From IMG/VR virus record IMGVR_UViG_3300028591_000104, positions 64,001 through 128,000 of that record: a stretch of 64,000 bases of DNA. The stretch is one strand, 5' to 3'. Made by a program: the position numbers and the translations under genes. Numbering within the stretch: position 1 is the stretch's first letter; each line of letters starts with the position of its first letter. Below the pieces are notes generated by a model. It saw only the letters and a list, made by a program, of their open reading frames with translations. It ran no database searches and was not told where the DNA came from. This document shows, in pieces, positions 1,482 through 64,000 of this stretch. The stretch comes from a virus. Taxonomy: Duplodnaviria; Caudoviricetes.

Positions 1482-1718
1482 GTGATTTTTATCGAATACT
1501 TACTTTTTTTCATTATAGGAATTATAGCCTAGGAATGGGTATTCCCTTTAATAGATTCCTTTATCCAGCTACTTGGCGTTCATCTTGAAGAAAAGAAAAA
1601 TATAGTAGCTGTTAGAATAAAAAAATTACAATCCCAACTCGAAGAACCTGAGGAGAAGCCATACTATATCGGGTTTCAAGTCGAACCAGAGGATGATGAA
1701 GAGGAGGATGAAGAATAA
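1482..1718 (+). CDS. small membrane protein, 78 aa, one in-frame TAG (1530)
   Basis: Hydrophobic N-terminus GIIA*EWVFPLID, acidic tail; TAA overlaps phoH ATG (TAATG); start GTG 1482 or in-frame ATC 1491 after AGGAAGGTGA. Confidence 0.7.
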
Positions 1719-2962
1719 TGGCAATTAAATTTTTAGATACCAGTTCTTTATTATTGCAAATTCCTATTGAGTTTTTTTATATTAGTGATTTAACTTTAAT
1801 AGAACTTGAAGGAATTAAAAATTCTTCTAATAAAGATTATGAAATAAAACAAAAAGCTAGAACTGTATCTAGATTTATTATGGAAAATTATGATAACAAC
1901 AAATTTAAAGTTGTTAATTATAATATTAATCAATTAAACTATATTTTAGAGCCAGACGACGATAAGACTAAAGCTAATAATGATTTAAAGATTTTAGCTA
2001 CTGCGTGTTGGCTAAAACACTTTCATGAGGATGAAGGTTTGGAATTTTATACCAATGATATAAATTTATTTAACCTAGCTCGTTGTCATGGATTAAATGC
2101 TAAGCAAGTAGAGCCTATACAAGAAGATTACAACGGATATGTTGAAGTCACACTTAGTGACGAAGAAATGGCTGATTATTATAGTCATTTAGGGTGTAAT
2201 TATTTTAATCTTTATATCGGTGAGTATGTAATTATATATAATACTGACCAAGAGGTAGTAGATATAGCTTGTTGGGAAGGCAATAAAATGCGGTCAATTA
2301 CTTATCCAAACCTTTATTCTGATTATTTTGGAAAGCTAAAAGCTAAGAATGATGACCCTTATCAGAAAATAGCTTGTGATAGTTTAATGAATAATCAGTT
2401 AACCGTTTTGCGCGGACCCGCCGGTTCTGGAAAGTCATATCTCGGATTAGGTTATCTTTTTAGTCTATTGGATAATGGTAAAATAGATAAGATAGTTATG
2501 TTTGTTAATCCAATGGCAGAAAGAAATAGTTGTAAATTTGGTTTTCTACCGGGTACTTTATTAGAAAAAATACTTGGTAGCCAAATTGGAAATTTTTTAT
2601 CCTCTAAATTGGGAGGAATTGAAAATGTATATTCTTTAGTAGATGAAGGAAAACTGGAGTTTATAGCCACTGCAGATGCCAGAGGTTATGATACATCTAA
2701 TATGAAATGTGGTATTTTTATGACCGAGGCGCAAAATACTACAATAGATATGATGAAACTTCTACTTGAGAGATTCGGAGAAGATACAATAGGTGTATTT
2801 GAGGGTGATACTGAATGTCAAGTAGACCATGCAAGTTATGAAAATGGGAATAATGGATTAAGAAGAGTGTGTGAAGTATTTAAAGGGCAACCTTATTTCG
2901 GAACTGTTATACTTAAAAATTGCTATCGAAGTAAAATAGCTAAACAAGCACTTAAAATGTAA
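1718..2962 (+). CDS. phoH: PIN-domain PhoH-family ATPase
   Basis: N-terminal PIN-like (LDTSSL, NNDLKIL, TNDINL), Walker A GPAGSGKS, FGFLPG, RG, EAQN, GD..QVD, NGL, RS. Confidence 0.9.
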   Translation: MAIKFLDTSSLLLQIPIEFFYISDLTLIELEGIKNSSNKDYEIKQKARTVSRFIMENYDNNKFKVVNYNINQLNYILEPDDDKTKANNDLKILATACWLKHFHEDEGLEFYTNDINLFNLARCHGLNAKQVEPIQEDYNGYVEVTLSDEEMADYYSHLGCNYFNLYIGEYVIIYNTDQEVVDIACWEGNKMRSITYPNLYSDYFGKLKAKNDDPYQKIACDSLMNNQLTVLRGPAGSGKSYLGLGYLFSLLDNGKIDKIVMFVNPMAERNSCKFGFLPGTLLEKILGSQIGNFLSSKLGGIENVYSLVDEGKLEFIATADARGYDTSNMKCGIFMTEAQNTTIDMMKLLLERFGEDTIGVFEGDTECQVDHASYENGNNGLRRVCEVFKGQPYFGTVILKNCYRSKIAKQALKM

Positions 2963-2972
2963 GATAAAAATG

Positions 2973-2998
2973 GGTAGAGCGAAAGCTCTACCTTTTTT
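2973..2998 (+). terminator. intrinsic terminator
   Basis: GGTAGAGC-GAAA-GCTCTACC followed by T-run. Confidence 0.85.
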
Positions 2999-3029
2999 AT
3001 TATAAAAAGAAACAAAGGAGGAAAAAATA

Positions 3030-3989
3030 ATGGGTAACTATGCTAGTACTATTATAAAACAAGCAATAGAAGAAATTGGATATTTAGAAAAAAAGTCCAA
3101 TAGCCAATTAGATAGTAAAACTGCTAATGCTGGTTCTAATAATTTTACAAAGTATGCTCGTGATGTTTGGGAAAAAGCTAGAAATATTCTGAACGGTAAT
3201 AAGCAAGGCGTTGACTGGTGTGCTGTATTCTGCATTTGGTTATTTGTAATAAGTTTTGGCGCTGCTATCGCACAAAAAATATTATTCTTACCAAATAAGA
3301 GTAGCGCGGCCGGGGCACATTACTTTATGAATTATTTTAAAGCTAAGAAAAGATTTTATTCATCTCCTAAACCTGGAGACTTGATTTTCTTCGGAACTAG
3401 TAGGGCAAGACACGTAGGTGTAGTAGAGTATGTTACAAGTACGGAAGTACATACTATTGAAGGTAATTCTTCCAATAGAGTAAGAAGAAAGAAATATAAA
3501 TTATCTAATAAAGATATTTTAGGCTATGGTCGTCCAGATTATGATGCGGAGCCAGGTCCCACTCCACCACCCACCCCGCCGCAGCCAGATACTTTTGAAG
3601 TTGGCGATAAGGTTAAAATCGTAGAGGGAGCTACTTGGGCAAGTGGATCTAAAATTCCTAAATGGGTAATGGATTCTGTACTGTACGTAAGACAGATCCG
3701 CAAAGATGGCAATATTGCTATTTCTATTTATGAAACAGGAGCTATTACTGGGGTTATAAATCCTAAATACCTTATTAAAATTGAAGATACTTATACTGCT
3801 ATAGTAATAGATGTGGCAGGCACTTATCTTAATGTACGTTCTGGTCCTGGTAAATCATATCCTGATATTGGTAGATTATATGATGGAAACCTTATTAAGA
3901 TTGACCAAGAGGATGGCAGATGGGTACACATGACTCATGGTGACCTTGTTGGTTGGTGTTCTATGGACTATATTAAGAAAGTAGGATAA
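3030..3989 (+). CDS. endolysin: CHAP amidase + Pro linker + SH3b-like cell-wall binding domains
   Basis: WCAVF, PGDLIFF, HVGVV, TIEGN; PGPTPPPTPPQP linker; LNVRSGPGKSY. Confidence 0.9.
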   Translation: MGNYASTIIKQAIEEIGYLEKKSNSQLDSKTANAGSNNFTKYARDVWEKARNILNGNKQGVDWCAVFCIWLFVISFGAAIAQKILFLPNKSSAAGAHYFMNYFKAKKRFYSSPKPGDLIFFGTSRARHVGVVEYVTSTEVHTIEGNSSNRVRRKKYKLSNKDILGYGRPDYDAEPGPTPPPTPPQPDTFEVGDKVKIVEGATWASGSKIPKWVMDSVLYVRQIRKDGNIAISIYETGAITGVINPKYLIKIEDTYTAIVIDVAGTYLNVRSGPGKSYPDIGRLYDGNLIKIDQEDGRWVHMTHGDLVGWCSMDYIKKVG

Positions 3990-3993
3990 GCCT

Positions 3994-4308
3994 ATGAAAA
4001 AAACAGGACTTAAACATTTGCCAGTGCCAAAAAATAAAAAGAAATTAGAATTTTCTAAGATACTATTAATTCAAGAATCAATTTTAATCTGGGTTATGAC
4101 TATTTCTTTTATTGTTCTTGCTTTTGTTTGTATTTATAAAGAATATCTTGGTGAACTTCCTTGGTTGAGCGCGATGGTAGCACTTCCATGGACAGCCTAT
4201 GGCGCGAGCCAGGGTTTCTATTATAATAAAGCGAAAGCAGAAAATACTAAAGATGGGATAGTTTATGAAACTGCTTTAGCTGATAAGGAAGAAGAACCTA
4301 AAGGCTAA
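3994..4308 (+). CDS. holin-like two-TM protein
   Basis: EFSKILL, two hydrophobic helices, FYYNKAKAEN; directly after endolysin. Confidence 0.65.
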   Translation: MKKTGLKHLPVPKNKKKLEFSKILLIQESILIWVMTISFIVLAFVCIYKEYLGELPWLSAMVALPWTAYGASQGFYYNKAKAENTKDGIVYETALADKEEEPKG

Positions 4309-4343
4309 CTATATTGTATCAAAAAAAATCTAAAATTTCAAGA

Positions 4344-4375
4344 TGGGGTATCCTCTAAGGGATGCCCCACTTTTT
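4344..4375 (+). terminator. intrinsic terminator
   Basis: TGGGGTATCC...GGATGCCCCA + TTTTT. Confidence 0.8.
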
Positions 4376-4377
4376 AT

Positions 4378-4406
4378 TTGCAAATTTGAAAATTTTTTGT
4401 TATAAT
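4378..4406 (+). promoter_or_regulatory. sigmaA-type promoter
   Basis: TTGCAA-17-TATAAT with TG extended -10. Confidence 0.7.
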
Positions 4407-4447
4407 TAGTTTGGACGAAACGATTAATGGATTTGAGAAGAGAAAAT

Positions 4448-4476
4448 TTGACAAATATAAAAATATATGTTATAAT
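4448..4476 (+). promoter_or_regulatory. sigmaA-type promoter for gyrB operon
   Basis: Perfect TTGACA-17-TATAAT with TG extended -10. Confidence 0.85.
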
Positions 4477-4510
4477 ATTATTGTATAAGAAATGAAAGGA
4501 GTTTGTTATA

Positions 4511-6424
4511 GTGGCAGATAAAAAATTATATACTAAAGATAGTATTGAGTCTTTAACCCCACTAGAATTTACTCGTCTTAGACCACAAGTTTATTGTGGA
4601 GATACTTCTTATTCTACTCAGCTTTTGGTAGAAATAATAAGTAATTCTATAGATGAATATAGATTAGGTCATGGTAATAAGATAGAAGTAAAGGTCGAAG
4701 AAGATGATACTATAACTGTTAGAGATTATGGTCAAGGTTTTTTGGTTAATGAAAAGCGCTCTGAAGATGGTAAAACAATTTTGGAGGCTGCTTTTAGTGT
4801 TTTAAATACTTCCGGTAAATATAGCGAAGATGGCGTTTATTCGGGGACTTCCCTTGGTTCTTTTGGTATCGGAAGTAAAATTACCACTTATCTTTCTCAT
4901 AAACTTATAGTAACAACTTATAGAGATAAAAAATTTGAAACTGTTACTTTTAAAGAGGGTGAATTTGCTGATAGAAAAGTTGGTAAATCTGCAGAACCTA
5001 CAGGAACTCAAGTAACTTATTCTCCTTCAGAAGAATTTTTTACTGATAAGGGAATAGAAATTAAGAAAATAAAAGATTTGTTTAAGACTATTAGTTGTCT
5101 TTGTCCTGGTTTAACTATAGAATTAACATATAAGTCTGAACCTAAAGAAATCTTTTATTCTGATAAAGGTCTTGATGACTTTGTAACTAATGCTGTTGGA
5201 GAAAAAGAAATTATAAGAAATCGTTTTCATAGTACTTTTAATGCTGATGAAAAAAATAAGATGGATTTTATCCTCACTTATACTACAGATTATAGCTCTA
5301 ACATGATAGCATATGTTAATACAGGTCTTACAGAGCGTGGACCACACATTACTTTAATCAAAACTTTTATTACAAGAGAATTTAATAAGTTTTTTAGGGA
5401 AAAAGGTTGGTTAAAAGAAAAAGAAGATAACCTTGAGGGTAGTGATATCCAAGAGGGAATGTATATAGTTTTCAATATAACGGCGCCCAATGTCGCCTAC
5501 AATGCGCAAGTAAAAAGTGATATTACGAAGATTGATATGAAGCCATTCACACCTAATCTTACAGAAGAACTTCATACATGGCTTCTAGCAAATGAAAAAG
5601 AAATTAAAATAATAGCTGATAAAGCCATTAATGCCCGTAAGGCTAGAGAAGCTGCCAAGAAAGCTAGAGATGCTGCCAGAGGCGTAGAAAAGAAAAAGGA
5701 AAAGAAATTATTAAATCTTCCTAGCAAATTAATTGATGCCTATGGAAAAAAGAGAGAAAAATGTGAATTATTAATTGTAGAAGGAGACTCCGCGGCAGGA
5801 GGGTTGGTGGAAGCACGTGATCCAGAGATTATGGCAATTTTCCCAATCCGTGGTAAAATTATTTCTGCATATAAAAACAGTAATGAAAAAATATTTGCTA
5901 ATCAAGAAGTTGTAAATATTATTAAGGCTCTTGGGCTTGATGTAGATGCAAAGACAGGTAAAATAATTTATGATAAATCTAAATTACGTTATGGTAAAAT
6001 AGTGCTTTGCGCTGATGCAGATCCAGATGGCCAGGCAATTAAAAATTTGTTACTTGAATTATTTTGGTGGTTATGTCCAGAACTTGTTAAAAATGGTCAT
6101 ATTTACGCTGCCGTACCGCCTCTTTTTAGAATAACTACAAAGAAAAATAAATATATTTTCCTTAAAGACCAAAAGGCTTTAGAAGAATATAAAAATACTC
6201 ACACTGGAGAGTCTTATTTAGTTAATCGAAATAAGGGATTGGGAGAACAAGATGCTTCTGAGCTTCGTGAAGCTATTATCGATGAAAAAACAAGAAATAT
6301 AGTTCAGATAGTGGTAGAAGATGAAAAAGAAGCTTCTAAATTAATGGAATGCTTAATGGGTTCTTCAGTGCCTCCTCGTAGAGAATATTTATTAAAACAT
6401 AGTGAGGAGGCGAATTTAGAGTGA
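4511..6424 (+). CDS. gyrB: type IIA topoisomerase (gyrase) subunit B
   Basis: EIISNSIDE, DYGQG, GSFGIG ATPase motifs; VEGDSA, PIRGK, DADPDG TOPRIM; NKGLGE. Confidence 0.92.
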   Translation: MADKKLYTKDSIESLTPLEFTRLRPQVYCGDTSYSTQLLVEIISNSIDEYRLGHGNKIEVKVEEDDTITVRDYGQGFLVNEKRSEDGKTILEAAFSVLNTSGKYSEDGVYSGTSLGSFGIGSKITTYLSHKLIVTTYRDKKFETVTFKEGEFADRKVGKSAEPTGTQVTYSPSEEFFTDKGIEIKKIKDLFKTISCLCPGLTIELTYKSEPKEIFYSDKGLDDFVTNAVGEKEIIRNRFHSTFNADEKNKMDFILTYTTDYSSNMIAYVNTGLTERGPHITLIKTFITREFNKFFREKGWLKEKEDNLEGSDIQEGMYIVFNITAPNVAYNAQVKSDITKIDMKPFTPNLTEELHTWLLANEKEIKIIADKAINARKAREAAKKARDAARGVEKKKEKKLLNLPSKLIDAYGKKREKCELLIVEGDSAAGGLVEARDPEIMAIFPIRGKIISAYKNSNEKIFANQEVVNIIKALGLDVDAKTGKIIYDKSKLRYGKIVLCADADPDGQAIKNLLLELFWWLCPELVKNGHIYAAVPPLFRITTKKNKYIFLKDQKALEEYKNTHTGESYLVNRNKGLGEQDASELREAIIDEKTRNIVQIVVEDEKEASKLMECLMGSSVPPRREYLLKHSEEANLE

Positions 6425-7164
6425 ATAAATATGGAATAATTTATAAAGTAACTAATTCTGTTAATAATAAAATTTATATTGGTCAAACGGTAAAAAATTT
6501 AAATGAAAGACGAAATGCTCATTATTATAAGGCAAGACATGAAAATTTAAACACACATTTTTTAAATGCTTTAAATAAATATCCTGAAGAAGTTTTTATT
6601 TGGGAAGAAATTGATGAAGCTAAAAATAGAGAAGAATTAGATAATAAAGAAATTTATTGGATAAATTATTATAATTCTATTGAAAATGGTTATAATACTA
6701 GGGCTGGCGGAGAAACGAGAAAAGAAGATGATAAATTTGCAGAAGCTTGTGGCTCTTCTCCATTTTTACTATATACCGCAAAAGGAGAATATGTTGGAGA
6801 ATTTGTCAATAAGCGTGATGTAGAGAGAAAATATGGCGTAAATCATAGCGACATTACTCAGATGATTAAAAACAATAAAGGTTCTTCTGGTGGTTATATA
6901 GCAATAGATAAAAAGAATTTTACACAAGAGATTTTAAAAGAAAGAATACAAATTGCTAATAAGAAAAAAGAGCAATTGTCACAAAAATATATTGCTATAG
7001 ATGTAAAGACTTTGCAAGAATACGGCCCCTTTAATACAATTAAAGAAATGGGAGAAGCATTAAATGTTAATCCTGCAAGTTTAAAAGTAAGTGATGTAAT
7101 TAAAGGAAAACGAAAAATAAGTTGTGGCTATACTTTTAAATTAAAAAAAGAAGGTGAAACATGA
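6421..7164 (+). CDS. free-standing GIY-YIG homing endonuclease with NUMOD-like C-terminus
   Basis: GIIYKVTNSVNNKIYIGQT..EIYWINYYNS..GYN; 4-nt overlaps with gyrB and gyrA. Confidence 0.88.
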   Translation: MNKYGIIYKVTNSVNNKIYIGQTVKNLNERRNAHYYKARHENLNTHFLNALNKYPEEVFIWEEIDEAKNREELDNKEIYWINYYNSIENGYNTRAGGETRKEDDKFAEACGSSPFLLYTAKGEYVGEFVNKRDVERKYGVNHSDITQMIKNNKGSSGGYIAIDKKNFTQEILKERIQIANKKKEQLSQKYIAIDVKTLQEYGPFNTIKEMGEALNVNPASLKVSDVIKGKRKISCGYTFKLKKEGET

Positions 7165-9500
7165 GTATTGATATAACACAAGAATTGCATCAAAATTTTA
7201 TAGACTTTTCTTATGAAGCCAATAGTCAAAGGGCATTTCCAGATGCTAGAGACGGATTAAAGCCTGGACAAAGAGCTTGTCTTTGGGAAATGTATGAAAA
7301 AGGATATATTCATTCTAAGCCTCATGTAAAAAGTGCAAAAATATCTGGCGGCGTTGCTGCTACATGGTGGCCGCATGGAACTACTGCCATTTATGATACC
7401 TTTACTCGTATGTCTCAAAATTGGATAAATAATATTCCAGAAGTAGAGTGGCATGGTGCAAATGGTTCAATAATTATAAGTAATGAGGCTGCCGCAGATC
7501 GTTATACAGAAGCTAGATTAAGTGCGGCCGCCCAGGCAGGAATGTTTGAGGGAATTAAGCAAAACAATGTCCCGATGATTAATAACTTTACAGAAGATGC
7601 ACAATGGCCAGAGGTATTACCAGCCGTAATGCCAAGGTTATTAATTAATGGTAGTATGGGTATTGGAGTAACAATAGCTAATACCTGGTTACCGATGAAT
7701 CTTAATGAATGCGCTGATGTAATTAAATCTTTTGTAAAAGATGAAGAAATAGATTATAATTCTTTAAAACTTATTGATTTTCCTTCTGGTGGAATAATTA
7801 TAAATTCTAAAGAATTGGGTAAAATTCATTCTACAGGAAAAGGAAAAGTTGTACTAAGAGGTATTACTAATATTAAAAATAATATTATAGAGATTACATC
7901 TTTTCCGTATCAGGTTTATATAGAACCTTGGATTGAGTCAGTTAAGAAATTAGTTAATGATGGAACTATAACTGGAATTGAAGATATTTATAATAAAAGC
8001 AGTAATGGAAAAATATTGGTAGAAGTTGAATGCTCCGGCAGTCCATCAACTATACTTCAGCAACTTTTTAAATTAACAGACCTTCAAAATTCTTATAATG
8101 CCAATCAGTTTGCTCTTATAGGAAATAAAACTCCTACTCTTTTAACACTTAAAGATTATTTAAAAGTTTATACAGAGCATAATTATGAATGTATAAAAAG
8201 AGAGTATAAATTTAATCTTGAAAAAGCTACTAGTCGTTTAGAGATAGTTGAAGGGTTATTAAAGGCAATAGTTAATATTGATGATATTATAGCTCTTATT
8301 AAGGCTTCTGATAGTTCTGCTCATGCAAGAGAAAATTTAATAAAAAAATATGGTTTTTCTGAAGCTCAGGCTAAGGCTATTACAAATATGAAACTTGGTA
8401 CTTTGGCTAGACTAGAAGGAGTAGAACTGGAGAAAGAAAAGAAAGAACTAACAGAAACAATAGAAGAATGTAATAAGATTTTATCCAACAGATCAGAACA
8501 AATAAATTTATTTATTACAAGATTAAATAAATTTGTTTCTGCTTATGGATATACCCGCCACACTCAGCTTACAGATATTGCGGAAGAAAAAGTTGCTAAA
8601 GAAATTGTAAATGTAGAACCTGAAAAGTGCGTTGTAATTATGACAGAAAGTGGCTTAATTAAGCGTATCCCCACTTCTTCCTTTAGGGAACAGAAGAAAG
8701 GTGGTAAGGGAATTAAGACTAAAGATGATATAGTATCTTCTATTATTAGGACTAACACTATTGATTCATTAATGGTATTTACAAATACTGGTACAATGTA
8801 TCGTCTGTTGGTTAATGATATCCCAGCCGGCACAAATACGACAAAGGGTACACCTATTAGAAGTTTGATTAATCTCCAGGCAAATGAACAGCCTATTATT
8901 ATCTATTCTATTTATAGAGATACAAAGGCTAAATATGTATTATTTGTTACAAAGAATGGTACAATTAAAAAGACTTCTCTTGAGGAATATACAAAGACAA
9001 TTAGAAAGACAGGAATATCTTGCTTGAAGTTGCGCGAAGGCGATGTGTTGGCGGACGCAACCTTAATTGATAACGAAGATATTGTTATCGTTACAAAGAA
9101 TGGTATGGGTATTAGATTTAAGTCTTCAGAAGTAGCAGCTTCTGGTAGAGCAACGATTGGTATTAAGGGTATTAGCCTTAAAGAAGGTGATAGTGTAATT
9201 AAGTTAGTACCAATAAGAGATGTTACAGATGATATTGCAATATTCACTGTTACTGGCCTTGGTAAGAGAATGTCCATAAGCGAACTCCCCGAGCAGAAAA
9301 GAAGTGGAAAGGGAGTAGCAATAGTCAAAGATGCTGAATTGGCAGATGCAATTATGGTAAATGATAGTGACATGGTTTTGGCTGTTGGAGTTTCTAACTC
9401 AATTTGTATTTCAGCATCAGAAATCACTAAGGCAACAAAGAACGCAGTTGGAACACAAATTATAAAAGGAACAAGATTACAAGGAGTAAGTAAAATATGA
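7161..9500 (+). CDS. gyrA: type IIA topoisomerase (gyrase) subunit A
   Basis: RAFPDARDGLKPGQR, PHG, AAADRYTEARL catalytic Tyr; beta-pinwheel CTD with GyrA-box-like QKKGGKG. Confidence 0.92.
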   Translation: MSIDITQELHQNFIDFSYEANSQRAFPDARDGLKPGQRACLWEMYEKGYIHSKPHVKSAKISGGVAATWWPHGTTAIYDTFTRMSQNWINNIPEVEWHGANGSIIISNEAAADRYTEARLSAAAQAGMFEGIKQNNVPMINNFTEDAQWPEVLPAVMPRLLINGSMGIGVTIANTWLPMNLNECADVIKSFVKDEEIDYNSLKLIDFPSGGIIINSKELGKIHSTGKGKVVLRGITNIKNNIIEITSFPYQVYIEPWIESVKKLVNDGTITGIEDIYNKSSNGKILVEVECSGSPSTILQQLFKLTDLQNSYNANQFALIGNKTPTLLTLKDYLKVYTEHNYECIKREYKFNLEKATSRLEIVEGLLKAIVNIDDIIALIKASDSSAHARENLIKKYGFSEAQAKAITNMKLGTLARLEGVELEKEKKELTETIEECNKILSNRSEQINLFITRLNKFVSAYGYTRHTQLTDIAEEKVAKEIVNVEPEKCVVIMTESGLIKRIPTSSFREQKKGGKGIKTKDDIVSSIIRTNTIDSLMVFTNTGTMYRLLVNDIPAGTNTTKGTPIRSLINLQANEQPIIIYSIYRDTKAKYVLFVTKNGTIKKTSLEEYTKTIRKTGISCLKLREGDVLADATLIDNEDIVIVTKNGMGIRFKSSEVAASGRATIGIKGISLKEGDSVIKLVPIRDVTDDIAIFTVTGLGKRMSISELPEQKRSGKGVAIVKDAELADAIMVNDSDMVLAVGVSNSICISASEITKATKNAVGTQIIKGTRLQGVSKI

Positions 9501-9944: not shown

Positions 9945-10148
9945 ATGAAAAGAATAAATAAAAATAAAAAAGGTTTTACTCTTGTAGAAATGATGTTGGT
10001 CATAGCTATTATTGTAATCTTAGCTGGTGTACTGACCCTGGGCATTGGTAATTACATTGTCAGGGCCCAGGCCGCCGCATCTTCGGTTTCAGAACATAAT
10101 GGAGAAATTAGCTCTGCTGTATCTGAAGTAGATGCGCATATGGGATAA
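9945..10148 (+). CDS. type IV prepilin-like peptide
   Basis: Class III signal KKG|FTLVEMMLVIAIIVILAGVL. Confidence 0.85.
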   Translation: MKRINKNKKGFTLVEMMLVIAIIVILAGVLTLGIGNYIVRAQAAASSVSEHNGEISSAVSEVDAHMG

Positions 10149-10158
10149 GGAGGAAAAT

Positions 10159-10524
10159 ATGGATAGAACTATTGGTTGTGATGGAAATTATGATAAAGAA
10201 ATTGAAAAATTAAAATATCAATATGAACAAGATCACCATTATACTTTAGAAGAAGTAATAAAAGAATGTTCAGATAAGATTGAAGAATATGACAAAGATT
10301 TAAAAGAAATGATTTTAAATAACAAAAGAGAATCACCGCATCATTTTGATCTTTATCATTATGGTTATGAAACATACGTTAAACAACAAAGACTAGTTCA
10401 ATTAAGAACTTGGCTGGAAAGTTTACAGTCTTCTGTAGAAAGACAGCAAGACCCAGAGAAACTCAAACAACAAAAATTTTTATTTGAATTGTGGGAAACT
10501 GATTATGAAAAGCTAAAGAGGTAA
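10159..10524 (+). CDS. hypothetical protein
   Basis: AGGAGG RBS before ATG 10159 favours this start over 10132. Confidence 0.65.
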   Translation: MDRTIGCDGNYDKEIEKLKYQYEQDHHYTLEEVIKECSDKIEEYDKDLKEMILNNKRESPHHFDLYHYGYETYVKQQRLVQLRTWLESLQSSVERQQDPEKLKQQKFLFELWETDYEKLKR

Positions 10525-10527
10525 TTA

Positions 10528-11235
10528 ATGAAAATATTAGTAGCATGCGAAGAGTCACAAGAAGTGTGTAAGGCTTTTCGAGAGAAGGGACATGAGGCTT
10601 AGAGTTGCGATATAATCGATTGCTCAGGTGGACACCTAGAATGGCATATTAAACAAGATGTATTACCTTTAATTAATGGTAATTGTACTTTTGAAACTTG
10701 CGATGGAATATCTCATGCGGTCGAAGGTAAGTGGGATATGATTATAGCGTTCCCTCCATGTACTGACCTTACAACAACGGGTGCGCGAGTTTTTGAACGC
10801 AAGCGCGCCGATGGTTCCCAAGTAAGGTCTATAGAGTTCTTTGCAAAGTTTCTTGAGGCTGATTGTGATAAGATAGCTATAGAGAATCCAGTGGGTATAA
10901 TATCAGGAAATTATATTAAACAGTGGTTTCCAGACCTTTGTGAAAAATATAATCTACCACGCGCTTATACTCAGATTGTTCACCCTTGGATGTTTGGCGC
11001 CAATTATACAAAGAGAACCTGTTTATGGCTAAAAGGATTACCGAATCTTATTCCAGAAGTAGAAGAGGAACCAGAAATTGAGTAGGTAGAATGGGTAGAT
11101 AAGAAAAGTGGTAGAACCAAAAGACAAAATAAATGGTATTATGAATTATCTTGTTTACCTACTGCGCAAAGAGCTAAGGCGAGATCAAAAACATACCCAG
11201 GCTTTGCACAAGCCATGGCTGAACAATGGGGGTAA
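10528..11235 (+). CDS. DNA cytosine methyltransferase-like protein, 235 aa, in-frame TAG at 10600 and 11083
   Basis: MKILVACEESQEVCKAFREKGHEA*SCD, AFPPCT, IENPVG, KRTCLWLKGLP, RSKTYPGFAQAMAEQWG-TAA; continuous only if TAG is read. Confidence 0.8.
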
Positions 11236-16707: not shown

Positions 16708-16742
16708 TGGGGGAGAGCTTAATTGTTCTCCCCCATTTTTTT
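16708..16742 (+). terminator. intrinsic terminator
   Basis: TGGGGGAGA...TCTCCCCCA + T-run. Confidence 0.85.
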
Positions 16743-16749
16743 ATTTATT

Positions 16750-47147: not shown

Positions 47148-47208
47148 TTAAACCTCCTTTGCCGCACAATTCCCCCCGGCAGTGACCTCATACCGGGGGC
47201 GCGGAGCT

Positions 47209-50487: not shown

Positions 50488-50503
50488 TTACACTCCACCT
50501 CCT

Positions 50504-55200: not shown

Positions 55201-56751
55201 GCTTTTTTGCTTTATACTTTCTGTGTATTCAAAAGCTGGAACCTTCCAAGTAACAGTTGCTCCTGCAAGATAACTAGGACTTTGGAAATTAGCGGTTATA
55301 GGACTCCAATCTAAATGAATACAATGTGGTAGTATAAATTCATATTGAGTATAAAGCTGATTTTCCATGTCATTATACCTTAATTCGGTATAAATTTTAT
55401 CCTCTCCATCTATGTTTTTATCCTAATATTCATAACTGAATTGAATAGCGTTACTTGCATCTATCTCTTCAGAAGTAATTATAGGTTGGTATCTATATAA
55501 AGTAATAGTATTACTATATAAATTAGAATATCTTAAAGCTGACTGAGAGTCAAAATTTTCTTTTTGTATTCTAACCCTAAATTTAACTTCTGGACTACCA
55601 ATCAAATCGGAGCCAATTAAATAATCTAACTCTCCCCCACCATGAGACACTTCTATTGGCTCAGGAGGAGTATAGTTATCATTATAAAAACAACTAAACC
55701 AGTCTTTATTGTTAATACAATATTCAAAATAAGCAGGGGGAAATCTATTATTATTTTCACTACTTCTTTTTAGTTGTCCTAGGCTATCTCTATACCAATA
55801 GACCCATGAAAAATGTTTTTTATTTTCTGTATCTTCCCACTTTTCAAAATATTGCGCGGGGTTGCTGAGTAAGAGCGTCACGTCACCTTCATGATACTCT
55901 TCTTTGCCATAGCCGAAATAAAGTTTTAAATCTTTAGCAAAAATATTTACTTGAACGTCACTTTCGGGCATCGGATAAACCAAAGGAGTTACTTGTCCAG
56001 TTGTAGTATTATAACAAGTAAAATCATTATTTTGAAATACAGAAACTTGAATACTTTTAACCAAAGCCATATCTTCAGGTGCTACAGGTACTAAAAGTTT
56101 CTGAATAACATAATCATTAAAATTATAAAGATTGCCAAACATTTGAGTAGAATTAAACTCATATATAATAAAAGGTACAAGAGAATTAGTATCTTTAAAT
56201 AGTTTAATTCTAATTCCATAAGTACCAGCATTAACATTCTATATACTACCTAATTCACCAGTCTTTAAAGCAATTTCTATACCCATTCTGGTATAAGGTT
56301 CATTATACAATTTGGCAAAATCATATTCATCTGTTAATGTAAAAGTACGTTCTGACCAGGGAAGAATATTAGCTTTTACGCCTATCTCTTCCACATCTAC
56401 TAAAGAAGGCTTACCTTCATTTACATCAAGAAAATCACTAAATGGATCTAATGATTTAAATTCTATTTCTTTAGAATATAGTTTATTTAATATAACTTTA
56501 GGATTATCCCAATTATTCTCTGGAATACTAACCATAACAGTATCATTTACTTTGTAAGTGTTTTCAGCACCAACAGCAGTAAAAGTTGTGCCACCATACT
56601 TACAAGAATAAGTTCCTGTATCTGCAGAATCTATTGAAATGATTTGAGCTTTTATGGTTTTATCATAGCCAGCTTTTGACACAGCGTCTTTAGCGATGGT
56701 AGCAATAGCTTCTATAATATTATTTCCTAAAGCTTCTTCCTTATTAGCCAT
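52270..56751 (-). CDS. very large tail (spike/central fibre-like) protein, 1493 aa, TAG at 56239, 55423, 53596, 53467, 52765, 52414
   Basis: All five track fragments share one frame, separated only by TAG; C-terminal GLYGY..QSFGLKADGTMFLGKAGKGQ. Confidence 0.75.
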
Positions 56752-56868: not shown

Positions 56869-59800
56869 TTAAAGGTTCTTTCTTCCTATATACTGTGATG
56901 CACGATTAACCAAATTGGTAAGTGCCAATTCAATTTCGTTGTGGTCAGTAGCATTAGGGAAGTTGGCTTCTATGTGAACATTCTGATTAAGGTCTTGCGG
57001 GCCGGCGGTTGCAGCACTCGCATAAGCATTGTTGATATTGACCGCCCCGGCAGCAGCCGCGCGCACATCAATGCTAGCAACAATGTCTCTAACCATCTGA
57101 ATAGTATTCAACATATTCTCAGTGTCATGAGCATTAAGTACTAATTCCTTTTGGTGAAGCATAGCCAAACGACCTTCACTTCCCCAAGAACCGGTATATC
57201 CACCAGTGTCAAAAGTAAAACCTTCTCTTTTATATAAATCATAAAAACTTTTTTTGTTATTTTTGTTTCCTATTAATTTATTTTTAATATCTTTAATATC
57301 TGTATCAGTTAAAGTGGTTCTTATCCAGGCAATTAAAGCACTTTCATTTTTACCAGATCCCACCAAGGATTTTAGAGCAGAAACATCTTTAGCAGCTTTA
57401 TTCATTTGTGATTGAGAACTACCGTCTGTACCAGTACCTATCTATCCTAAAAAGTCTGCTAAATCTTGAGTTTTTGCAGCATCTAAGCTATTTTTTTCAC
57501 TATAAGGTTTAGATCCCTTTTTTCCTCCTCCACCAGAATCATCCGTAGTATTTGTACTATAAGTGGTTTTATTAACTCCAGTATTATTTTTCTTATTATT
57601 AACTTCATCCATTTGTCTTGATAATTCTTTATATTTACTAATTAAATTATTAACTTGATTTACAGTATTACTAATATCTTTTCTAAGTTTATCTAATTTC
57701 TGATTATTAACATCATTAATTTTATTAATAACATCATCAAATGCTCTTCTCATATCTTTAGCAGCTTCTTCCACAGACCCAGCGGCATCCTTTGAACTCT
57801 GCTCTGCAGTCTTCATAGCACCACTTACTAAATCAGCATAATCTGCAAGGCTAGTACCTGCTGCGCCCAATACTTCTTCCTGTTTAAGTTTAAAATTTCC
57901 AAGAGCATTCATAATACTAGGGAAATAACCGCCTTCACCAACAGTAGCTTCAGTAAATTGTTTAAGAAGGTCAGAAGCGCTTTGTACGTTAGGCTGCAGT
58001 ACTCCAGTGTATGTATCTTCAATCTTAGTCTGATAATCTTCTAGTTTACTGATTTTATAACCAGTTGTTTTAGAATAATCTAACCAATCTTTATTATACA
58101 ATTCAGAGTTCTTATCAATAGCAATACCAAGTTGATCGCTCATTATCTCAGCCATACGCTGATAATATTCTTGTGTCTCTTGGAGTCTACGCTCTTTATC
58201 TTCTTCATTGAGACTAGAATCTTGAGCGATTTTAGTCATTTCTTCAACATACTGATTTTCAAGATTTAAAAAATTCTCTTGCTGTTCTTTAATAAAATCA
58301 CTATTTAACTTTTGATACTCATAAAGTTTATCTTCATAGTTCTGGCGTGCTTTATCAACGTTATCTTCATCAGCCGTATAAATATAACTCCAGTTACCAT
58401 CATTATCCCTTGACATGCGGACGGTCTGCTTAGCGGCCTGTGCATCTTCAAGAGCTATTTCAGCAAGTCTTAATTCATACTTTTTACGAAGAGCATCAAC
58501 CTCAAACTGACTTACTTCCTTACCAGAAGCTTCAATATCAGCTATTTCTTGAGTAATTTCTCTTAATCTTTCCTTCTGTCTTATAGTATCTGCATCATCA
58601 ATAGAATTATTAATATCACGAGTTAATTTACTAAATTCATAAATCTTCTCATAATCATCAAGATACTGTTCATCAAGTTTCTTTAATCTATCGAATTTGG
58701 TCATATCCCAATCAGAAGTATTAACCATCTCTTTGAAATTGTTAGACATATCTTCAACAGCTTTTTTGAAAATATCTTCAGCTTGCTTTAAAGCTTCTTC
58801 TGTTTTCTTAAGCATATCTGATTGAGAATTTTCTACTTCAGATTCCATCTCACGAAGGTCATTACGGAAAGCAGTTAATGTTTGCTCACTAGCTCCAGAA
58901 GCTATAAGTCTTTCATACTCAGCTTTTGCCTGTTCTAAACTTGCTCTCTGAGAAGCCAATCTAGCATAAGCTGCTTCAACTCCATTAACCATTTGCGCGT
59001 ATTGAGAACCCATTACATCAGTAATAAATTGATTAGTAACGCCAGGAGAATTGGAATAGATTAAATCAGCAATATCTTGATATTGTTTTAATAAATCGAT
59101 ATTAGAAGCAATTTTATTTTGCTGATAATCAAATTCTTCATTCCATTCTTCAAACGCATCTACCATTCCATGTATGATAGACTCTTGAAGTTCATCTATA
59201 GTCTTTTGGGTTTCAAGAAGACTACTATTATAGTCTAATAAAGTATTAACCTCATCTTCAGTAAAACCAAGATTAGCTATTGTATCATCGGAAAGATTAC
59301 CTATATCATTAATACTTGCTATACCATGATTAGCGAGAATCTGATTAACAGCTTCATCATAAGTAGTTTGACTACTAAGATTAACACCAAGCTGTTCACT
59401 CATCTTAGCAATAGATTCAGCTGTTGAAAATGCTTTTTTCTGAATGCGGTCAAGGTCATATTCCAGTTTTTCAAGCTCTGCATCATTGACCTGGATATCC
59501 ATTTCTACTTTAGTAGTAATTTTTTCAAGAGCTTTATCATATATTTCATACTCAAGCTGTTGAATCTCTTCAAGCTTTTTCTGATATAATTCATTAGTAT
59601 CGTCATACTGTTTTAACTTTTTCTTGAAATCTTCATAACGCTGGCTAGCTTTATTAAATTCAGCTTCAGACATTTTACCAGAATTATATTTTTTAACAGC
59701 ATCATTATAACGTTTAAGTTCTTTCTCAATCATCTCGTCATAATTTGTAACGACACCATTTTCATCATATTTAGCGCCAAAGAAGTTAAGATTTTCTTGG

Positions 59801-62800
59801 TCTAACTTATAATAATCTTCAATTTCTTTTAAGTATTGCTTTTGGATATCAAGTTCTTTTTCTAAGGCTTCTGTTTCTCTATCTATGTAATCAAGTTTAG
59901 CTTTACCCCAAGCACGAGATTTAGCTTTATCAAGTTTCTTGAGAATGTCAAGTTGGTCTTGAAGTTGACGACTTATAACATAGTAACGCTCTTTCTCATC
60001 TTTAAGTTCTTTCTTATCCTTTTTAGAACGAGATTTACCAGATCCAGAAGATTTAGTGGTTTTAGAAGTTGTTACTTTATCTCTTGTATAATGAACAGAA
60101 TCTAAACCTACTAATTGTTTATGGCTACCAATTTTATTACCATGGGCGTCAAAATCATCTACTTCTTCAAATCTAAGTTCTCCAGACCAGCCAGATTTTT
60201 CTAAAGCTTTATTTATTTGTTCACTGCTATATCCTGCAGCAACCATAGCGTCTAAAAGCTGTTTCATAAATTCACTATTGTCTAAAGTCATTCCAAAAGT
60301 GAATTCATTATCCAACTCATCCATTTTTGCCATAGCTTCATCGAAGTCCATACCCATTTTGTCTTTAAATGCTTGAGACTCGTTTAAAGCTTGATTTTCA
60401 AAAGCGAAATAGGCATTGCCTAAATCTCTGATAGCTTCGGCATCTCCAGTAGAAGCTTTTTTAATTAAATCTAAATTATTTAAAATAAATGAAGTATCAA
60501 TATCTTCATTTGTACTAAATACATTTTGTAAATCTTTATTAATATTTTCTAAGGCATTAGTATATTCTGTAGTACCTTTTAAAGCTGGATCTAAAGATTT
60601 TTCATAACTATCAAAATTAGAATTTAAATCTTGAATTCCTTTACTTAATCTAGCATAAGCTAATGCTACATCTAAAGAAGCTTCTTTATTACCTTTTAAA
60701 TAAGCGTTATGTTTTTTTAAATAATCAGCATTATTTTTTAATTCTTCGGTGTCTATACCAAGAGCTTTTGCACTAGCATAAACAGCGGTTTCAAGCTGTT
60801 CATTCATAGTTACATTTTCTTTTATTTCTTCCGGTAAAGAACGATAAATTTCTTCTAATTCGTCTAACGTTAATGTAGAAGTGTCTGGTACAACATTTTT
60901 TAAAGCTTCTTCTAATCCTTTTCCAGATTCTAAAGATTCAAGCATCTGTTGATATTTTAAAAGAGGTGCTAAATCACTATAATCTCCCCCACCTTCTAAG
61001 GTTTTTCTATATTTATTAATAGCTTCTTCATTTGCTGAATATACATAACGTCCAGAATCTTCTCCATAGGCATGATGTTCTATATTATAAAATTTGCTAA
61101 CTTCTTCAGCTGTTATATCTTCTACATTTTTACCAAGCATTTTTACAAGAGAAGGTTTTAATGATTCTATAAGATCATTATAAGCAGATTCTGCCGTTGT
61201 TCCCTTAGTAGTGTTATAATCTAATAAATCAGACTAATTAGATCTAAGCTCTAGTTTATTAGCCTCTTCGGCCATTTGGTTAATTTGTTCTGCTGTTTTA
61301 CCAGCTGTTAATTGTTCTACAGCTGTAATATCACTTTCACCTAATAATTTATCTAATTCTGCTTTAGATTCTGATAAATTTTTCCCTTGTCCTGCCTCAA
61401 AAACTTCTTTAATATTTTCTTTTGTAGAATCTACCATTGCACGATGCATTTCTTCTGTACTTTTTGTTATTACATAAGTACCATCAGCACATTCTTTAGT
61501 AAATTGAGATATATCTATACCTAAAGCTTCAAATTGGGCTTTTAATTTATCAAATCCTTCTTTATCTAAAACATCACCAATTTTTAAATTATTTATAGCA
61601 TTTACAAAAGAAGTAATTTTACCAGATAATTCTTCTAGTTCTAACTTTTCAATATCTGCTTGTAAAATAGTAAGAGTGCGACTTAAATTTCTTCCAGTAG
61701 CTTCGTAAGTAGCAAAAAATAACTCAGAATCATTTTTTAATGTATTTACTATTTTTTGAGTTTGTTCGCTATCTTTATCAAAACCAAGTGCACTTAATTG
61801 TTCCTAAAATACTTTTTCTCTACGCTCTGCTTCTTCTTCGCCACTTTTTGTTTTGCTTCCATTTTGAGCATAAGCATATTTATTACTAAAGGCAGAAGTA
61901 ATTGCAACACTTTGCTGCATTGTTTTTAACTGATCAGAATTTAAAAGTTGAGACATTTGATTAATAAATTCTGACTATAGTTCTTCAGCAGGAACATCAT
62001 TTCCCCAACGTTTAACCCAATTGCCATAAACTGCATTTTCAATTTCTTTAAAATCAGTTACTTTAAAACCACCATTAGCTTCAGCTGCATTAATTTTTGC
62101 TTGAATACCCGCTTTATTATTTTGGAAGCTTTCTACCGCAATTTGCTTTCCTTGATTTGCAATAATTTTATCCATTTTCTTTTGGACGTCACCAAAATCA
62201 ATTCCAACATCTTGTAAAGATTCGAGTAAATCATTATCTTCAGCGGTTCCATATCTATAAGTATTTTTTTGAGCTTCTGCAATAAATTTACTAAATTTAG
62301 CTAGAGTTTGATCGTCCATTTCACTAAGATTGTATGAGAAATCTTTTTCATTTACTTTAACTCCAGATAAATTTAAAGCTTTTAAATCTTTTAAAAAGTT
62401 ACTTTCTTTTTCATTTAAACTATAATTTTGATTGGTGAGTAAATTTGTTCCCCATTTTAATATACCATCATTATGTTTAGTACCAATTCCAGTAACTCCT
62501 TTATCATTCTGCTGTAAAGAAGCAGCTCCAGCAGAAGACATACCATATCTTACTGATTGACTTTCTTCTATATTTAATTGTTTATTTTCTTCAACTAATT
62601 CTTTTTTCTTTTTATCAATTTGATATTCTAATTGATCATAAGCGCCAGCTTGAGCCAAAATAGCAGCGTTTTCTACTTTTAAAGCTTCTGCCACTTTAAG
62701 CAATTCATCACGATAAGCTTGTTTAGATTCTGTAGCCCCATCTTGTGCTGCTTTTAATTTTTCTAAAGCATCAATTTGAGTTAATAAAGCATTATTTTGT

Positions 62801-64000
62801 TCTACAGTTTCTTCCAATTCTGTAGCATGTTCTAATGCTTGTTCAGATTCTTCTTTTATTTTATTTATTTCATTTGCTACATAAGCTACCGTTCCAACAA
62901 CAGCTGCTATAGCTACTATAGGTATTATTGCTTTTGCTGCACTAAGTGCTAAATAGCTTAAAGCTTGACCAAAAGACATAGTTGCGGCCTTAGCAGCTAC
63001 TGAAGCAGCAGTAACCTCTACTTCAGAAGCTGCTAACAATTTTGCGGCGGCTGCATTTTTTATAGTAGTAACTATATTTACCTTTTGTAAATTACTAAGA
63101 CCAGCAAATACTTTTTGTGCGCCCTTAATTCCATTAGTTAATGAAGGAATTATAAACCCTATACTAGTTATTGTCTGTAACATTGCTTGGCCTACAGTCA
63201 TATTACCTTTAGCCACTTGATCCCAAGCTCGTTGTATAGATATAGCTTGATTAACGGCAGAACCAAGTCCCGTAAAAGCTTGGGCGGTTCCAGTAATTAC
63301 ATTACCTAAAGCTTGGGCATTGGCCGTAGCTGCTGCCATATTATCTGCTGTTGCATCTATATCTTGTTGAGATAAAACTCTTCCAGCAACTGTATTTTCA
63401 GCTTGCATGCCATGCGCTTGAGCTATATTCTCACCCTGTTTAGCAGCAGATTCTTCAAGCTCTTCAGCCCTTTTTTGGGCAGCTGCTGCCATTTTATCTT
63501 CCATGTCTTGAGCTTTTTTTATTTTATCAGTTGCTTCTTTCAAAGCTTGCTTATAGTCTTCTTTAATATTTATTTCATCATTAGTGTTCTCTGGAAGCGA
63601 GTTAATAAAATCATTTATTCTTACCTTCACGGCCGCAGCCTGTGAATTATATTGTGAAAAACTACCAAAGAAACCTTTATTAATTCTTTGCTGATTACCT
63701 TCTTTATCTGTCTAAGTTAAACCTTGAAATGTACGCTTCAACTGAGTCACTGCTTCATTTCTTAAATCATCAACTTCTGCTGTTATATCATCCTCTATCT
63801 CAGTTTGTAATTTTGCAAAAGTATCACTTTGACTTTGAAATAAATTCTGCTCAGCCTGTCCTGATTGTTCATTATATGCAGTAACTAAATCTCCACGTCT
63901 CTTTTTTAAATTATTAGTTACTTCTTTAGCTTCTTCTTCTGAAATAGTAGAATCACGTATTGCTTTATCTAACAATTCAGCATCTTTGTTTAATTTATCA
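56869..64000 (-). CDS. tape measure protein, partial (>2370 aa), TAG at 63712, 61975, 61804, 61234, 57442
   Basis: Long helical/coiled-coil, Ala-rich hydrophobic segment, C-terminal FDTGGYTGSWG..AMLHQKELVLN; frame open to window end. Confidence 0.85.

Follow-up and report, generated by a model that had tools for sequence, protein, structure and literature searches.

Evidence that UAG is read as tyrosine in a sheep-gut phage that retains UAA and UGA as stops

In-frame TAG codons and stop usage

The window, by which we mean the whole 64-kb stretch of DNA analysed here, belongs to a rumen phage of about 150 kb from sheep gut and carries, among others, genes for an anaerobic ribonucleotide reductase (NrdD), an NAD-dependent DNA ligase (LigA) and a RecJ-like exonuclease, together with structural and tail modules on the opposite strand (Table 1). 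Both strands carry in-frame TAG codons, 43 in all, distributed over 19 confident genes, a confident window gene being one with homologues or of at least 200 amino acids; a previous sequence-only reading had counted 44 in 19 genes, with which our recount agrees closely. That reading had also observed that breaks in the open reading frames resume in the same frame, and when TAG is read through the broken frames do join as full-length genes.

Table 1. Genes of the window and positions of their in-frame TAG codons (window coordinates; fractions give relatives with Tyr at the site)
Gene or block	Length (aa)	Coordinates	Strand	TAG positions	Remarks
PhoH/PIN, CHAP endolysin, gyrase B, gyrase A		1718..9500	+	TAG-free	Pfam
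Two small genes	159, 235	10045..11235	+	10129, 10600, 11083	Open only with TAG read; 10600 Tyr in the sole aligned relative
LigA, NAD-dependent DNA ligase	658	14111..16087	+	15347	See text
GIY-YIG domain protein	350	16723..17775	+	17056	GIY-YIG 5.8e-10; column variable in relatives
ThyX-like protein	215	17775..18422	+	18000 (4/6)	Weak Thy1 match
RecJ-like exonuclease	573	24093..25814	+	24099, 24171, 24201, 25806	DHH, DHHA1, RecJ_OB
Phage tail lysozyme-like protein	253	25811..26572	+	25982	Phage_lysozyme2 6.8e-09; 0 relatives aligned at site
SF1 helicase, DNA polymerase III alpha, MFS transporter		26649..33293	+	TAG-free	Pfam
NrdD, anaerobic ribonucleotide reductase	751	33526..35781	+	33670, 34027, 34750, 34774	See text
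RuvC-like resolvase	172	38252..38770	+	38447, 38666	Weak RuvC match
Two structural-module genes	893, 395	41342..45227	-	43046, 45015	PHROG peptidase and head-decoration-like matches; TAG columns variable or unaligned
Small structural-module gene	125	45243..45620	-	45600 (6/6), 45402 (6/7)	
Four tail-module genes	293, 207, 1092, 531	45639..52099	-	46497; 47076, 46908 (1/1), 46749; 48289, 47950, 47395; 52037, 51587, 51323 (10 TAGs)	PHROG tail-protein matches; weakly conserved, TAG columns mixed
Large tail or fibre protein	1493	52270..56751	-	56239, 55423, 53596, 53467, 52765 (2/3), 52414 (6 TAGs)	Single frame without TAA/TGA; relatives' alignments span 3 TAGs
Tape-measure-like giant gene	3087	56869..64000 (beyond window end)	-	57442, 61234, 61804, 61975, 63712	3087 codons in one open frame with TAG read; TAG columns variable

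Pfam domains continue across the TAG codons of LigA, NrdD and the RecJ-like protein. The NRDD match (6.8e-146) covers all four NrdD TAGs, and in LigA the adenylation and OB domains lie 5' of the TAG with the HhH and BRCT domains 3' of it. The RecJ-like site at 25806 is the penultimate codon and is aligned to Tyr in four and Phe in two of eight relatives, which suggests that the codon is read and is not the stop. Tape measure proteins of related Phassvirus phages, to be compared with the tape-measure-like gene here, are 3149–3209 aa in length (PMC10607447).

Genes are interrupted by TAG only, and interruptions by TAA or TGA were never seen. Throughout the genome 86 genes have homologues in relatives, and every one of them is terminated by TAA (60) or TGA (26), as had been stated earlier for the complete genes. 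When TGA or TAA is read through in this genome as a control, 5 and 14 aligned 'sites' are obtained respectively, with no consistent residue in either case, and both codons remain stops, in line with the original claim. The standard-code relative G008, also used as a control, has one TAG site versus the 43 found here. There is a candidate for a genuine TAG stop in one early gene outside the window (genome positions 5746–6180), where TAG is situated exactly at the homologue's end, and this gene may terminate there. Some TAGs lie near 5' ends (for example at window positions 499 and 3982), where the true start may be downstream.

The genome contains approximately 90 in-frame TAGs in total, and TAG would be a minor Tyr codon that makes up 3–6% of Tyr-type codons (6.1% in the virion block, 3.1% in the plus-strand block and 4.5% in the first 64 kb). 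TAGs are present in all three genome blocks, and the excess in virion genes amounts to a tendency without a sharp division between blocks. The core replisome and the lysins are encoded without TAG, nucleotide-metabolism and DNA-processing genes contain it, and the virion genes are densest; the TAG-free block at the left of the window likewise indicates that TAG use is patchy.

The residue opposite TAG

The phage proteins were aligned to approximately 90 related phage contigs and nine whole related genomes. For the 46 TAG sites with at least four aligned relatives the log-likelihood for Tyr is +60.6 and that of the next residue, Phe, is −41.4; restricted to the 23 sites of the window, the values are +25.1 and −10.9 respectively. 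Of the approximately 960 residues found opposite TAG, 507 are Tyr and 14 are Gln, and Tyr is ahead of Gln by approximately 100 log-likelihood units. Tyr is the majority residue in 57% of TAG columns versus 62% of real Tyr codons, with mean Tyr frequencies of 0.45 and 0.52 respectively, and the roughly 40% of TAG columns that lack Tyr dominance have their counterpart among the real Tyr codons. At several TAG sites Tyr is essentially invariant, both in the portal protein (80/80) and in other virion proteins (54/54, 38/38 and 41/42). In a mixture test of the TAG columns Ser, Leu, Phe and Gln did not emerge as components, the Gln fraction being zero. Applied to sister genomes, the alignment method returns their known codes, TAG=Gln and TGA=Trp, and with a standard-code relative it returns nothing.

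The individual genes give a similar picture. The four NrdD sites have Tyr, in order, in 5/9, 7/9, 8/9 and 8/9 relatives; among 120 database homologues the first is Tyr in 65 and Phe in 44, and the others are Tyr in 119/120, 119/120 and 117/120, stray Gln residues in these homologues being TAG codons rendered as Gln by the source. Tyr is also present in 4/8 relatives at the LigA site, in 4/5 at the RecJ-like site 24099 and in 4/5 at the RuvC-like site 38447; at 38666 the RuvC-like relatives have Trp (2), Phe (2) and Tyr (1). Some of the tyrosine motifs originally listed for these families proved unreliable in distant solved structures, where the LigA residue is Arg and several NrdD sites are mixed; closer homologues do have Tyr at these sites.

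Every comparative test that was run is in accord with the proposal that TAG specifies tyrosine, and the residue tabulated opposite TAG is Tyr, not Gln. We conclude from these alignments that UAG is probably read as tyrosine in this phage while UAA and UGA remain stops, and we put the probability of this reading at roughly 0.88.

The CUA tRNA and alternative readings of TAG

A tRNA with a CUA anticodon had been predicted, encoded either by the phage beyond the window or by a recoded host, and one was found by ARAGORN and Rfam in the phage genome at positions 42607–42697, 21.3 kb before the window and directly 5' of a tRNA-Cys. It is 91 nt in length with a long variable arm, C1-G72 and A73, and scores 44.1 bits against RF00005. 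No release factor or TyrRS gene was found in the phage genome. The bacterial Tyr identity set is A73 and U35, Ser requires G73 and C72, Gln requires U1-A72 and G73, and in archaea and eukaryotes the Tyr pair is C1-G72, which is not the canonical pair of bacteria (PMC9976931). The CUA tRNA has A73, U35 and the long variable arm of the bacterial Tyr set, although the G1-C72 typical of bacterial tRNA-Tyr is replaced by C1-G72; the combination of C1-G72 and A73 also occurs in tRNA-Tyr(GUA) of three related phages (G001, G004 and G006) and of a Clostridia MAG. The D-arm resembles those of Tyr and Ser tRNAs and not those of Leu tRNAs, and bacterial long-arm tRNAs with the same anticodon stem and T-loop are Tyr (44), Leu (3) or Ser (1). 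Against phage-family references alone the scores are 18.5 for Ser and −11.8 for Tyr, and the variable arm of 19 nt is Ser-like in length, such that the sequence as a whole does not settle the identity. Two related contigs have another class II CUA tRNA at the corresponding position, and it scores as Tyr. The long variable arm and A73 fit a predicted tyrosine identity. It had been supposed that such a tRNA would be one change from GUA, and this origin is not supported, since the phage's own tRNA-Tyr(GUA) has not recently given rise to the suppressor. A plausible mechanism is that the host TyrRS charges the phage CUA tRNA with tyrosine and that the charged tRNA then outcompetes host release factor 1 at the approximately 90 in-frame TAGs; the suppressor might conceivably have a role in timing.

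Several other explanations must be weighed against tyrosine. Sister lineages in the same family read TAG as glutamine (genetic code 15), as do most of the recoded phages described so far, phAss-1 is annotated in this way (PMC10607447) and Tyr-clade proteins are rendered with TAG=Q in public catalogues, yet with Gln making up 14 of about 960 aligned residues, a zero Gln fraction in the mixture test and a sole CUA tRNA that is long-armed with A73 and not Gln-type, it is extremely unlikely that glutamine is inserted here. We also regard it as very unlikely that the long-arm suppressor inserts another residue, such as Ser or Leu, and that the Tyr signal reflects only tolerated TAGs one change away from TAT or TAC. 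This would accommodate the best tRNA score against phage-family references and the Ser-like length of the variable arm, but many TAGs are situated at invariant Tyr positions (80/80, 54/54, 38/38 and, in NrdD, 119/120) and are kept across the clade at 68–75% identity, A73 and G72 oppose a Ser identity and the D-arm opposes Leu, and six other codon families are also one step from TAG although Tyr alone appears. Assembly or sequencing errors, or decaying genes, deserve almost no weight, notwithstanding that the genome is a single metagenome-assembled record and that public contigs matched to NrdD are a mixture of relatives: TAG alone, never TAA or TGA, interrupts the genes, two NrdD TAGs lie in a stretch matched without a difference by a 589-base contig from another sample, independent assemblies from other studies have TAG at Tyr positions, and a matching CUA tRNA is encoded.

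The sequence-only reading had left room for a recoded host as the decoder of UAG, in which case the phage would simply follow a host code with TAG as tyrosine. The phage has its own CUA tRNA, however, and a search for the Tyr-like CUA tRNA pattern among 401 genomes sampled from the class to which a rumen Clostridia MAG belongs gave no sign of it, which makes this highly improbable. A dual use of TAG, as tyrosine once the suppressor is made and still as the end of some early genes, would amount to a timing switch and not a clean reassignment, and regulation of this type has been proposed by Borges et al. (10.1101/2021.08.26.457843). The TAG at the homologue's end in the gene at 5746–6180, the avoidance of TAG in replisome and lysin genes and the higher TAG share of virion genes (6.1% versus 3.1% in the plus-strand block) are consistent with such a switch; given that there is one candidate only and that it is outside the window, that TAA or TGA terminates 86/86 genes that have homologues, and that TAGs occur in all three blocks, we consider it unlikely.

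Known systems and the phage family

With tyrosine as the preferred reading of UAG, the phage is similar to the code-15 TAG-recoded phages, which include crAss-like, Lak and other phages (Borges et al. 10.1101/2021.08.26.457843; Peters et al. PMC9523058), in that there is in-frame TAG in essential genes, a phage CUA suppressor tRNA, TAA and TGA stops, patchy TAG that tends to be more frequent in virion genes, and a gut habitat. It differs from them in the amino acid, which is glutamine in those phages, in having a long-arm suppressor with A73 versus a Gln-type one, and in the rarity of TAG, with about 90 codons here, while in sister genomes 230–250 TAG sites or more could be aligned. phAss-1, of the Phassvirus group (PMC10607447), is a distant relative with 35.5% identity in the portal. 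The TGA-to-Trp (code 4) phages also combine stop-to-sense recoding with a phage suppressor, and this is practised within the same family, but the codon and the amino acid are different.

The E. coli suppressor supF, tyrT with G34 changed to C, is a laboratory amber suppressor that reads through host stops at a cost. Both it and the tRNA described here have a tRNA-Tyr-type body and a CUA anticodon for UAG, and would presumably be charged by an ordinary TyrRS; the phage genome, in contrast, is written for its suppressor, and the phage tRNA has C1-G72, a longer variable arm and no recent origin as a copy of the phage tRNA-Tyr(GUA). In NCBI table 29 (Mesodinium nuclear) TAA and TAG are Tyr and in table 14 TAA is Tyr, and these codes share with the phage the reassignment of a UAR stop to tyrosine. 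They are, however, eukaryotic nuclear or mitochondrial codes with TAA reassigned, whereas here TAA is the main stop and only TAG would be Tyr. Table 29 was rejected for this phage because TAA ends 60/86 genes and gives no consistent residue on read-through. We know of no NCBI table with TAG as Tyr and TAA and TGA as stops, and TAG as tyrosine in phages or bacteria was not found in the literature searched.

At least five other assemblies make up a TAG=Tyr clade with 68–75% protein identity to the phage, and TAG exchanges with TAT or TAC between the phage and close relatives (L005, 8/9; L006, 10/12; L287, 19/20; L288, 19/25). In other lineages of the family TAG stands for Gln, Glu or Trp, or TGA for Trp (G003, L011, L071 and L072). 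The Tyr clade is nested inside a well-supported clade whose other members have TAG=Gln, which suggests that the codon was first captured from 'stop' and later acquired a new amino acid. It is likely that in this ruminant/gut family of approximately 130–180 kb phages TAG has been assigned to Gln, Glu, Trp or Tyr and TGA to Trp, each reassignment being accompanied by a matching phage suppressor tRNA in the lineages with whole genomes, and that a captured codon has subsequently switched its amino acid.

For practical purposes a recoded stop in a phage is taken to be TAG=Gln or TGA=Trp/Gly, and these assignments are built firmly into annotation tools and catalogues; a TAG=Tyr phage would mean that the amino acid of a recoded stop cannot be assumed. 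Two database proteins from close relatives in the Tyr clade are translated with TAG=Gln and have Gln at invariant, probably functional Tyr positions, and mistranslation of this kind touches structure prediction, function calls and proteomics searches. What would be gained is a natural genetic code without an NCBI table, with TAG as Tyr and TAA and TGA as stops, together with a natural amber suppressor whose unusual mix of a bacterial-style long arm and C1-G72 is of interest for genetic-code expansion. If the tyrosine reading is true, the family would be a natural system for studying genetic-code switches, and this phage and its sister lineages would provide a direct test of how the meaning of a codon changes.

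In-frame TAG codons and the genome that carries them

The source record, a single IMG/VR virus entry of 150,486 bases and 35% G+C of which the window is bases 64001–128000, divides within the window into two halves. By Pfam, the + strand half carries DNA-metabolism genes (PhoH, CHAP lysin, gyrase B, gyrase A, RNA ligase, LigA, DnaB, RecJ, SF1 helicase, DNA polymerase III alpha, NrdD and RuvC-like), and tail and virion genes occupy the − strand half, where one tape-measure-like frame runs to 3087 codons; the genes for portal, terminase and other head proteins are found just outside the window. A full-length MFS transporter gene separates nrdD from the DNA polymerase III alpha gene, and is kept in the relative L287. 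Among published phages, those closest to this one are the phAss-1 / Phassvirus group (portal identity 35.5%; PMC10607447) and the Enterococcus phage EF1-like phages (27%). Public runs with near-identical sequence are labelled as sheep, goat and bovine gut metagenomes.

Coordinates of features in this phage and in related loci
Feature	Location	Strand	Description
MFS transporter gene	window 32082-33293	+	PF07690, 2.6e-23
Suppressor tRNA	genome 42607-42697		91 nt, anticodon CUA
Early gene	genome 5746-6180		outside window; read-through to TGA ends at 6237
tRNA-like element	genome 44356-44427 (L002:10356-10427)		outside window; 42.4 bits, Rfam tRNA model
tRNA with anticodon UUG (Gln)	genome 48135-48219		outside window; 85 nt, U1-A72, G73, long variable arm
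UUG tRNA of a related locus	L289:8498-8582		long variable arm
CUA tRNA of related loci	L290:3394-3480; L289:3417-3503		directly 5' of tRNA-Cys
Repeat of the genome's first 100 bases	genome 148290		ends not a long direct repeat

The presence of in-frame TAG codons is confirmed. Translation table 11 splits many genes of the window, and reading through TAG joins the pieces in frame without internal TAA or TGA; Pfam domains extend past the TAGs in LigA, NrdD and RecJ. The sequence-only reading had counted 44 such codons in 19 genes, of which the gene count holds and our recount in confident window genes gives 43 codons. Its proposal that TAA and TGA are retained as stops is borne out, as all 86 genes with homologues in the relatives end in TAA (60) or TGA (26). 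Read-through of TGA or of TAA as controls gave 5 and 14 aligned positions respectively, with no consistent residue in either, and a standard-code relative (G008) has one TAG position compared with 43 in this genome. One 589-base contig from the public runs matches exactly across two NrdD TAGs, the NrdD contigs of these runs being a mixture of related genes from sheep, goat and bovine gut. Contigs from RNA libraries matched TAG-free parts and have no bearing on transcription or translation.

The residue opposite TAG

Distant NrdD and LigA homologues with solved structures have mixed columns opposite TAG (H/R, Y/S/P, W/G and E/F/P; R in LigA), and are too distant to speak for or against tyrosine; closer relatives were therefore gathered. 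A search with a tail protein found none, and a portal protein search then yielded 80 IMG/VR loci (46–71% identity), to which we added nine whole related genomes (G001–G009). All proteins of the genome were aligned to these relatives with X placed at each TAG.

These alignments support the reading of TAG as tyrosine first made from the sequence, and we put its probability in this phage at roughly 0.9. Among approximately 960 residues aligned opposite TAG, 507 are Tyr, followed by Ser (78), Thr (69) and Phe (51), with Gln at only 14. A Codetta-like column score over the 46 TAG sites with at least four aligned relatives, whole genomes included, gives +60.6 for Tyr and −41.4 for Phe, the next residue; the 23 window sites alone give +25.1 and −10.9. 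The TAG columns resemble those of real Tyr codons, both in mean Tyr frequency (0.45 versus 0.52) and in the proportion of columns with a Tyr majority (57% versus 62%), and a two-component mixture assigns no share of the TAG columns to Ser, Leu, Phe or Gln. At individual sites, Tyr is found in 5/9, 7/9, 8/9 and 8/9 relatives at the four TAGs of NrdD (anaerobic ribonucleotide reductase), in 4/8 at the one in LigA, in 4/5 at the first RecJ site and 4/8 where TAG is the penultimate RecJ codon, in 4/5 at the first site of the RuvC-like gene, in 4/6 at the one in the ThyX-like gene, and in 6/6 and 6/7 at the two sites of a 125-aa gene. In relatives the same method recovers the known codes TAG=Gln and TGA=Trp, a positive control for reading TAG as Tyr here.

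An independent NrdD search in a collection of 5.8 billion proteins gave 120 homologues (70–88% identity), in which the first TAG column contains Y 65 / F 44 and the other three have Tyr in 119, 119 and 117 sequences. The eight Gln residues that interrupt these otherwise all-Tyr columns come from six of the eight closest proteins (P0001–P0004, P0007 and P0008), at positions that are Tyr in 117–119 of the 120. For P0001 and P0007 the collection states that only 'with TAG=Q' does the gene give the protein on record, and these residues are thus TAG codons rendered as Gln by a pipeline. P0001–P0003 are carried on ENA contigs of 141–146 kb.

The exchange of TAG with Tyr codons is also seen between close relatives, among them L287 and L288, the contigs of P0001 and P0007. 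In L287, part of a 145.7-kb contig with 75% protein identity to this phage, TAG lies opposite TAT, TAC or TAG of this phage at 19 of 20 sites, and in L288, part of a 43-kb contig with 68% identity, at 19 of 25. Two IMG/VR contigs (L005 and L006; 72–75% identity) show the same two-way exchange of TAG with TAT/TAC. Because it is seen in several independent assemblies, TAG=Tyr is a stable property of a clade and not an artefact of one record.

A different role for TAG may apply at one early gene, which may truly stop there: the TAG falls exactly at the end of the homologue, the G004 protein extending by a single residue past the aligned stretch, to the TAG position, and beyond the TAG there are 18 further codons before TGA. 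Of the Tyr-type codons, TAG makes up 6.1% in the virion block, against 3.1% in the window's + strand block and 4.5% over the genome's first 64 kb, and the genes for gyrase, DnaB, polymerase, helicase, RNA ligase and CHAP lysin are TAG-free. This distribution, a gradient rather than a partition, is loosely consistent with a delay of late-gene translation by recoding, as proposed by Borges et al. (10.1101/2021.08.26.457843).

The suppressor tRNA

A phage-encoded CUA tRNA outside the window had been predicted, and one is present. ARAGORN places 26 tRNAs and one tmRNA at genome 34–48 kb; exactly one tRNA, three bases before tRNA-Cys, has the anticodon CUA. This suppressor reaches 44.1 bits with the Rfam tRNA model and has a variable arm of about 19 nt, C1-G72, A73 and an encoded CCA. 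Bacterial Tyr identity consists of A73, G34 and U35 on a long-arm tRNA, while Ser identity requires G73 and C72, and Gln identity U1-A72 and G73 (Giegé and Eriani, PMC9976931). The D-arm is of the Tyr/Ser kind, unlike Leu, and together with A73 this points to Tyr. Bacterial long-arm tRNAs sharing its anticodon stem and T-loop comprise 44 Tyr, 3 Leu and 1 Ser among the 120 matches listed. C1-G72 is unusual for bacteria, yet ordinary tRNA-Tyr(GUA) genes have it in three related phages and in a Clostridia MAG. Overall similarity is ambiguous between Tyr and Ser, and sequence HMMs of the family's Tyr, Ser and Leu tRNAs give weak, indecisive scores. As the outcome of position-weight scoring varies with the reference set, we rely on the identity elements and the alignments.

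The suppressor did not arise by recent copying of the phage's tRNA-Tyr(GUA). Searches of IMG/VR and JGI metagenome contigs for the same tRNA gave only unrelated CUA tRNAs, and no Tyr-like CUA tRNA pattern was found in 401 Clostridia-class genomes. Among IMG/VR and JGI phage contigs, L275–L285 carry unrelated CUA tRNAs with inserted long variable regions and Gln- or Trp-like bodies. Two further loci (L289 and L290) have a different long-arm CUA tRNA in the slot that the suppressor occupies in this phage, with G1-C72 and A73, a variable arm of 14 nt and GTCGGCA as an odd T-loop, which ARAGORN missed and which scores as Tyr against phage-family tRNAs; a six-frame comparison was uninformative on their code, as non-coding frames aligned equally well. 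No release factor (PF00472) or TyrRS (PF00579) was found in the phage; we infer that the suppressor would be charged by the host TyrRS and would compete with host RF1.

Two other tRNA-type elements lie nearby. A long variable arm is unusual for tRNA-Gln, and the UUG tRNA has one both here and in L289. The tRNA-like element, whose 'anticodon' loop is only 5 nt, is directly 5' of a DUF2828/TROVE-like gene and recalls the tRNA-like Y-RNA partners of Ro proteins.

Codes across the family and what is new

Applied to each relative, the same alignment method gives answers that differ by lineage. TAG is read as Gln in G005, G006, G007, G009 and L007–L029 (for example, a Q majority at 60/255 sites), and as Glu in G001 (L085–L092; E majority at 115/250), G004 (L108–L114; 95/229) and about 30 loci among L033–L084, with Gln the majority at 19 sites each in G001 and G004. 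TAG=Trp is found in G002 (L093–L100), L037 and L070 (W majority at 44/97), TGA=Trp in G003 (L101–L107), L011, L071 and L072 (26/57), and the standard code in G008.

Where they could be judged, the suppressor tRNAs of relatives agree with these calls. The CUA tRNA of G006 is Gln-like; in G002 the CUA tRNA (93 nt) and the tRNA-Trp(CCA) are clearly paralogues, the former carrying about 21 extra nt in its variable region, and the UCA tRNA of G003 (96 nt), 81% identical to the CUA tRNA of G002, is likewise a tRNA-Trp derivative with an insertion of that size in the same region. G001 and G004 share an identical 74-nt CUA tRNA with a Trp-like body, C1-G72 and A73, 75% identical to the tRNA-Trp of this phage; one idea is that it might be charged by a non-discriminating GluRS via U35 and escape amidation. 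ARAGORN found no CUA tRNA in G007. That genome lacks in-frame TAG in 21 kb around the portal gene, yet its 72 aligned TAG sites elsewhere have a Gln majority, so code calls from a single locus can mislead.

In a quick tree of portal proteins, a clade with support 100 unites the three Tyr rows and lies inside another, also supported at 100, whose further members are 15 rows with TAG=Gln and one with TGA=Trp. The order of code changes is hypothetical, because the tree is rooted at the midpoint only, its 'standard' labels were assigned from about 20 kb per locus, and elsewhere in its genome G007 turned out to be TAG=Gln.

To our knowledge, TAG=Tyr with TAA and TGA as stops matches no NCBI table. 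TAG=Gln and TGA=Trp or Gly are the recodings described in phage papers, TAA=Tyr figures in Mgcod as a simulation only, and a literature search confined to papers outside subscription found no phage TAG=Tyr. Stop-codon recoding with a phage suppressor is known; what is new is the amino acid, tyrosine. On this reading, the public-catalogue proteins of Tyr-clade phages in which TAG was rendered as Gln are mistranslated.
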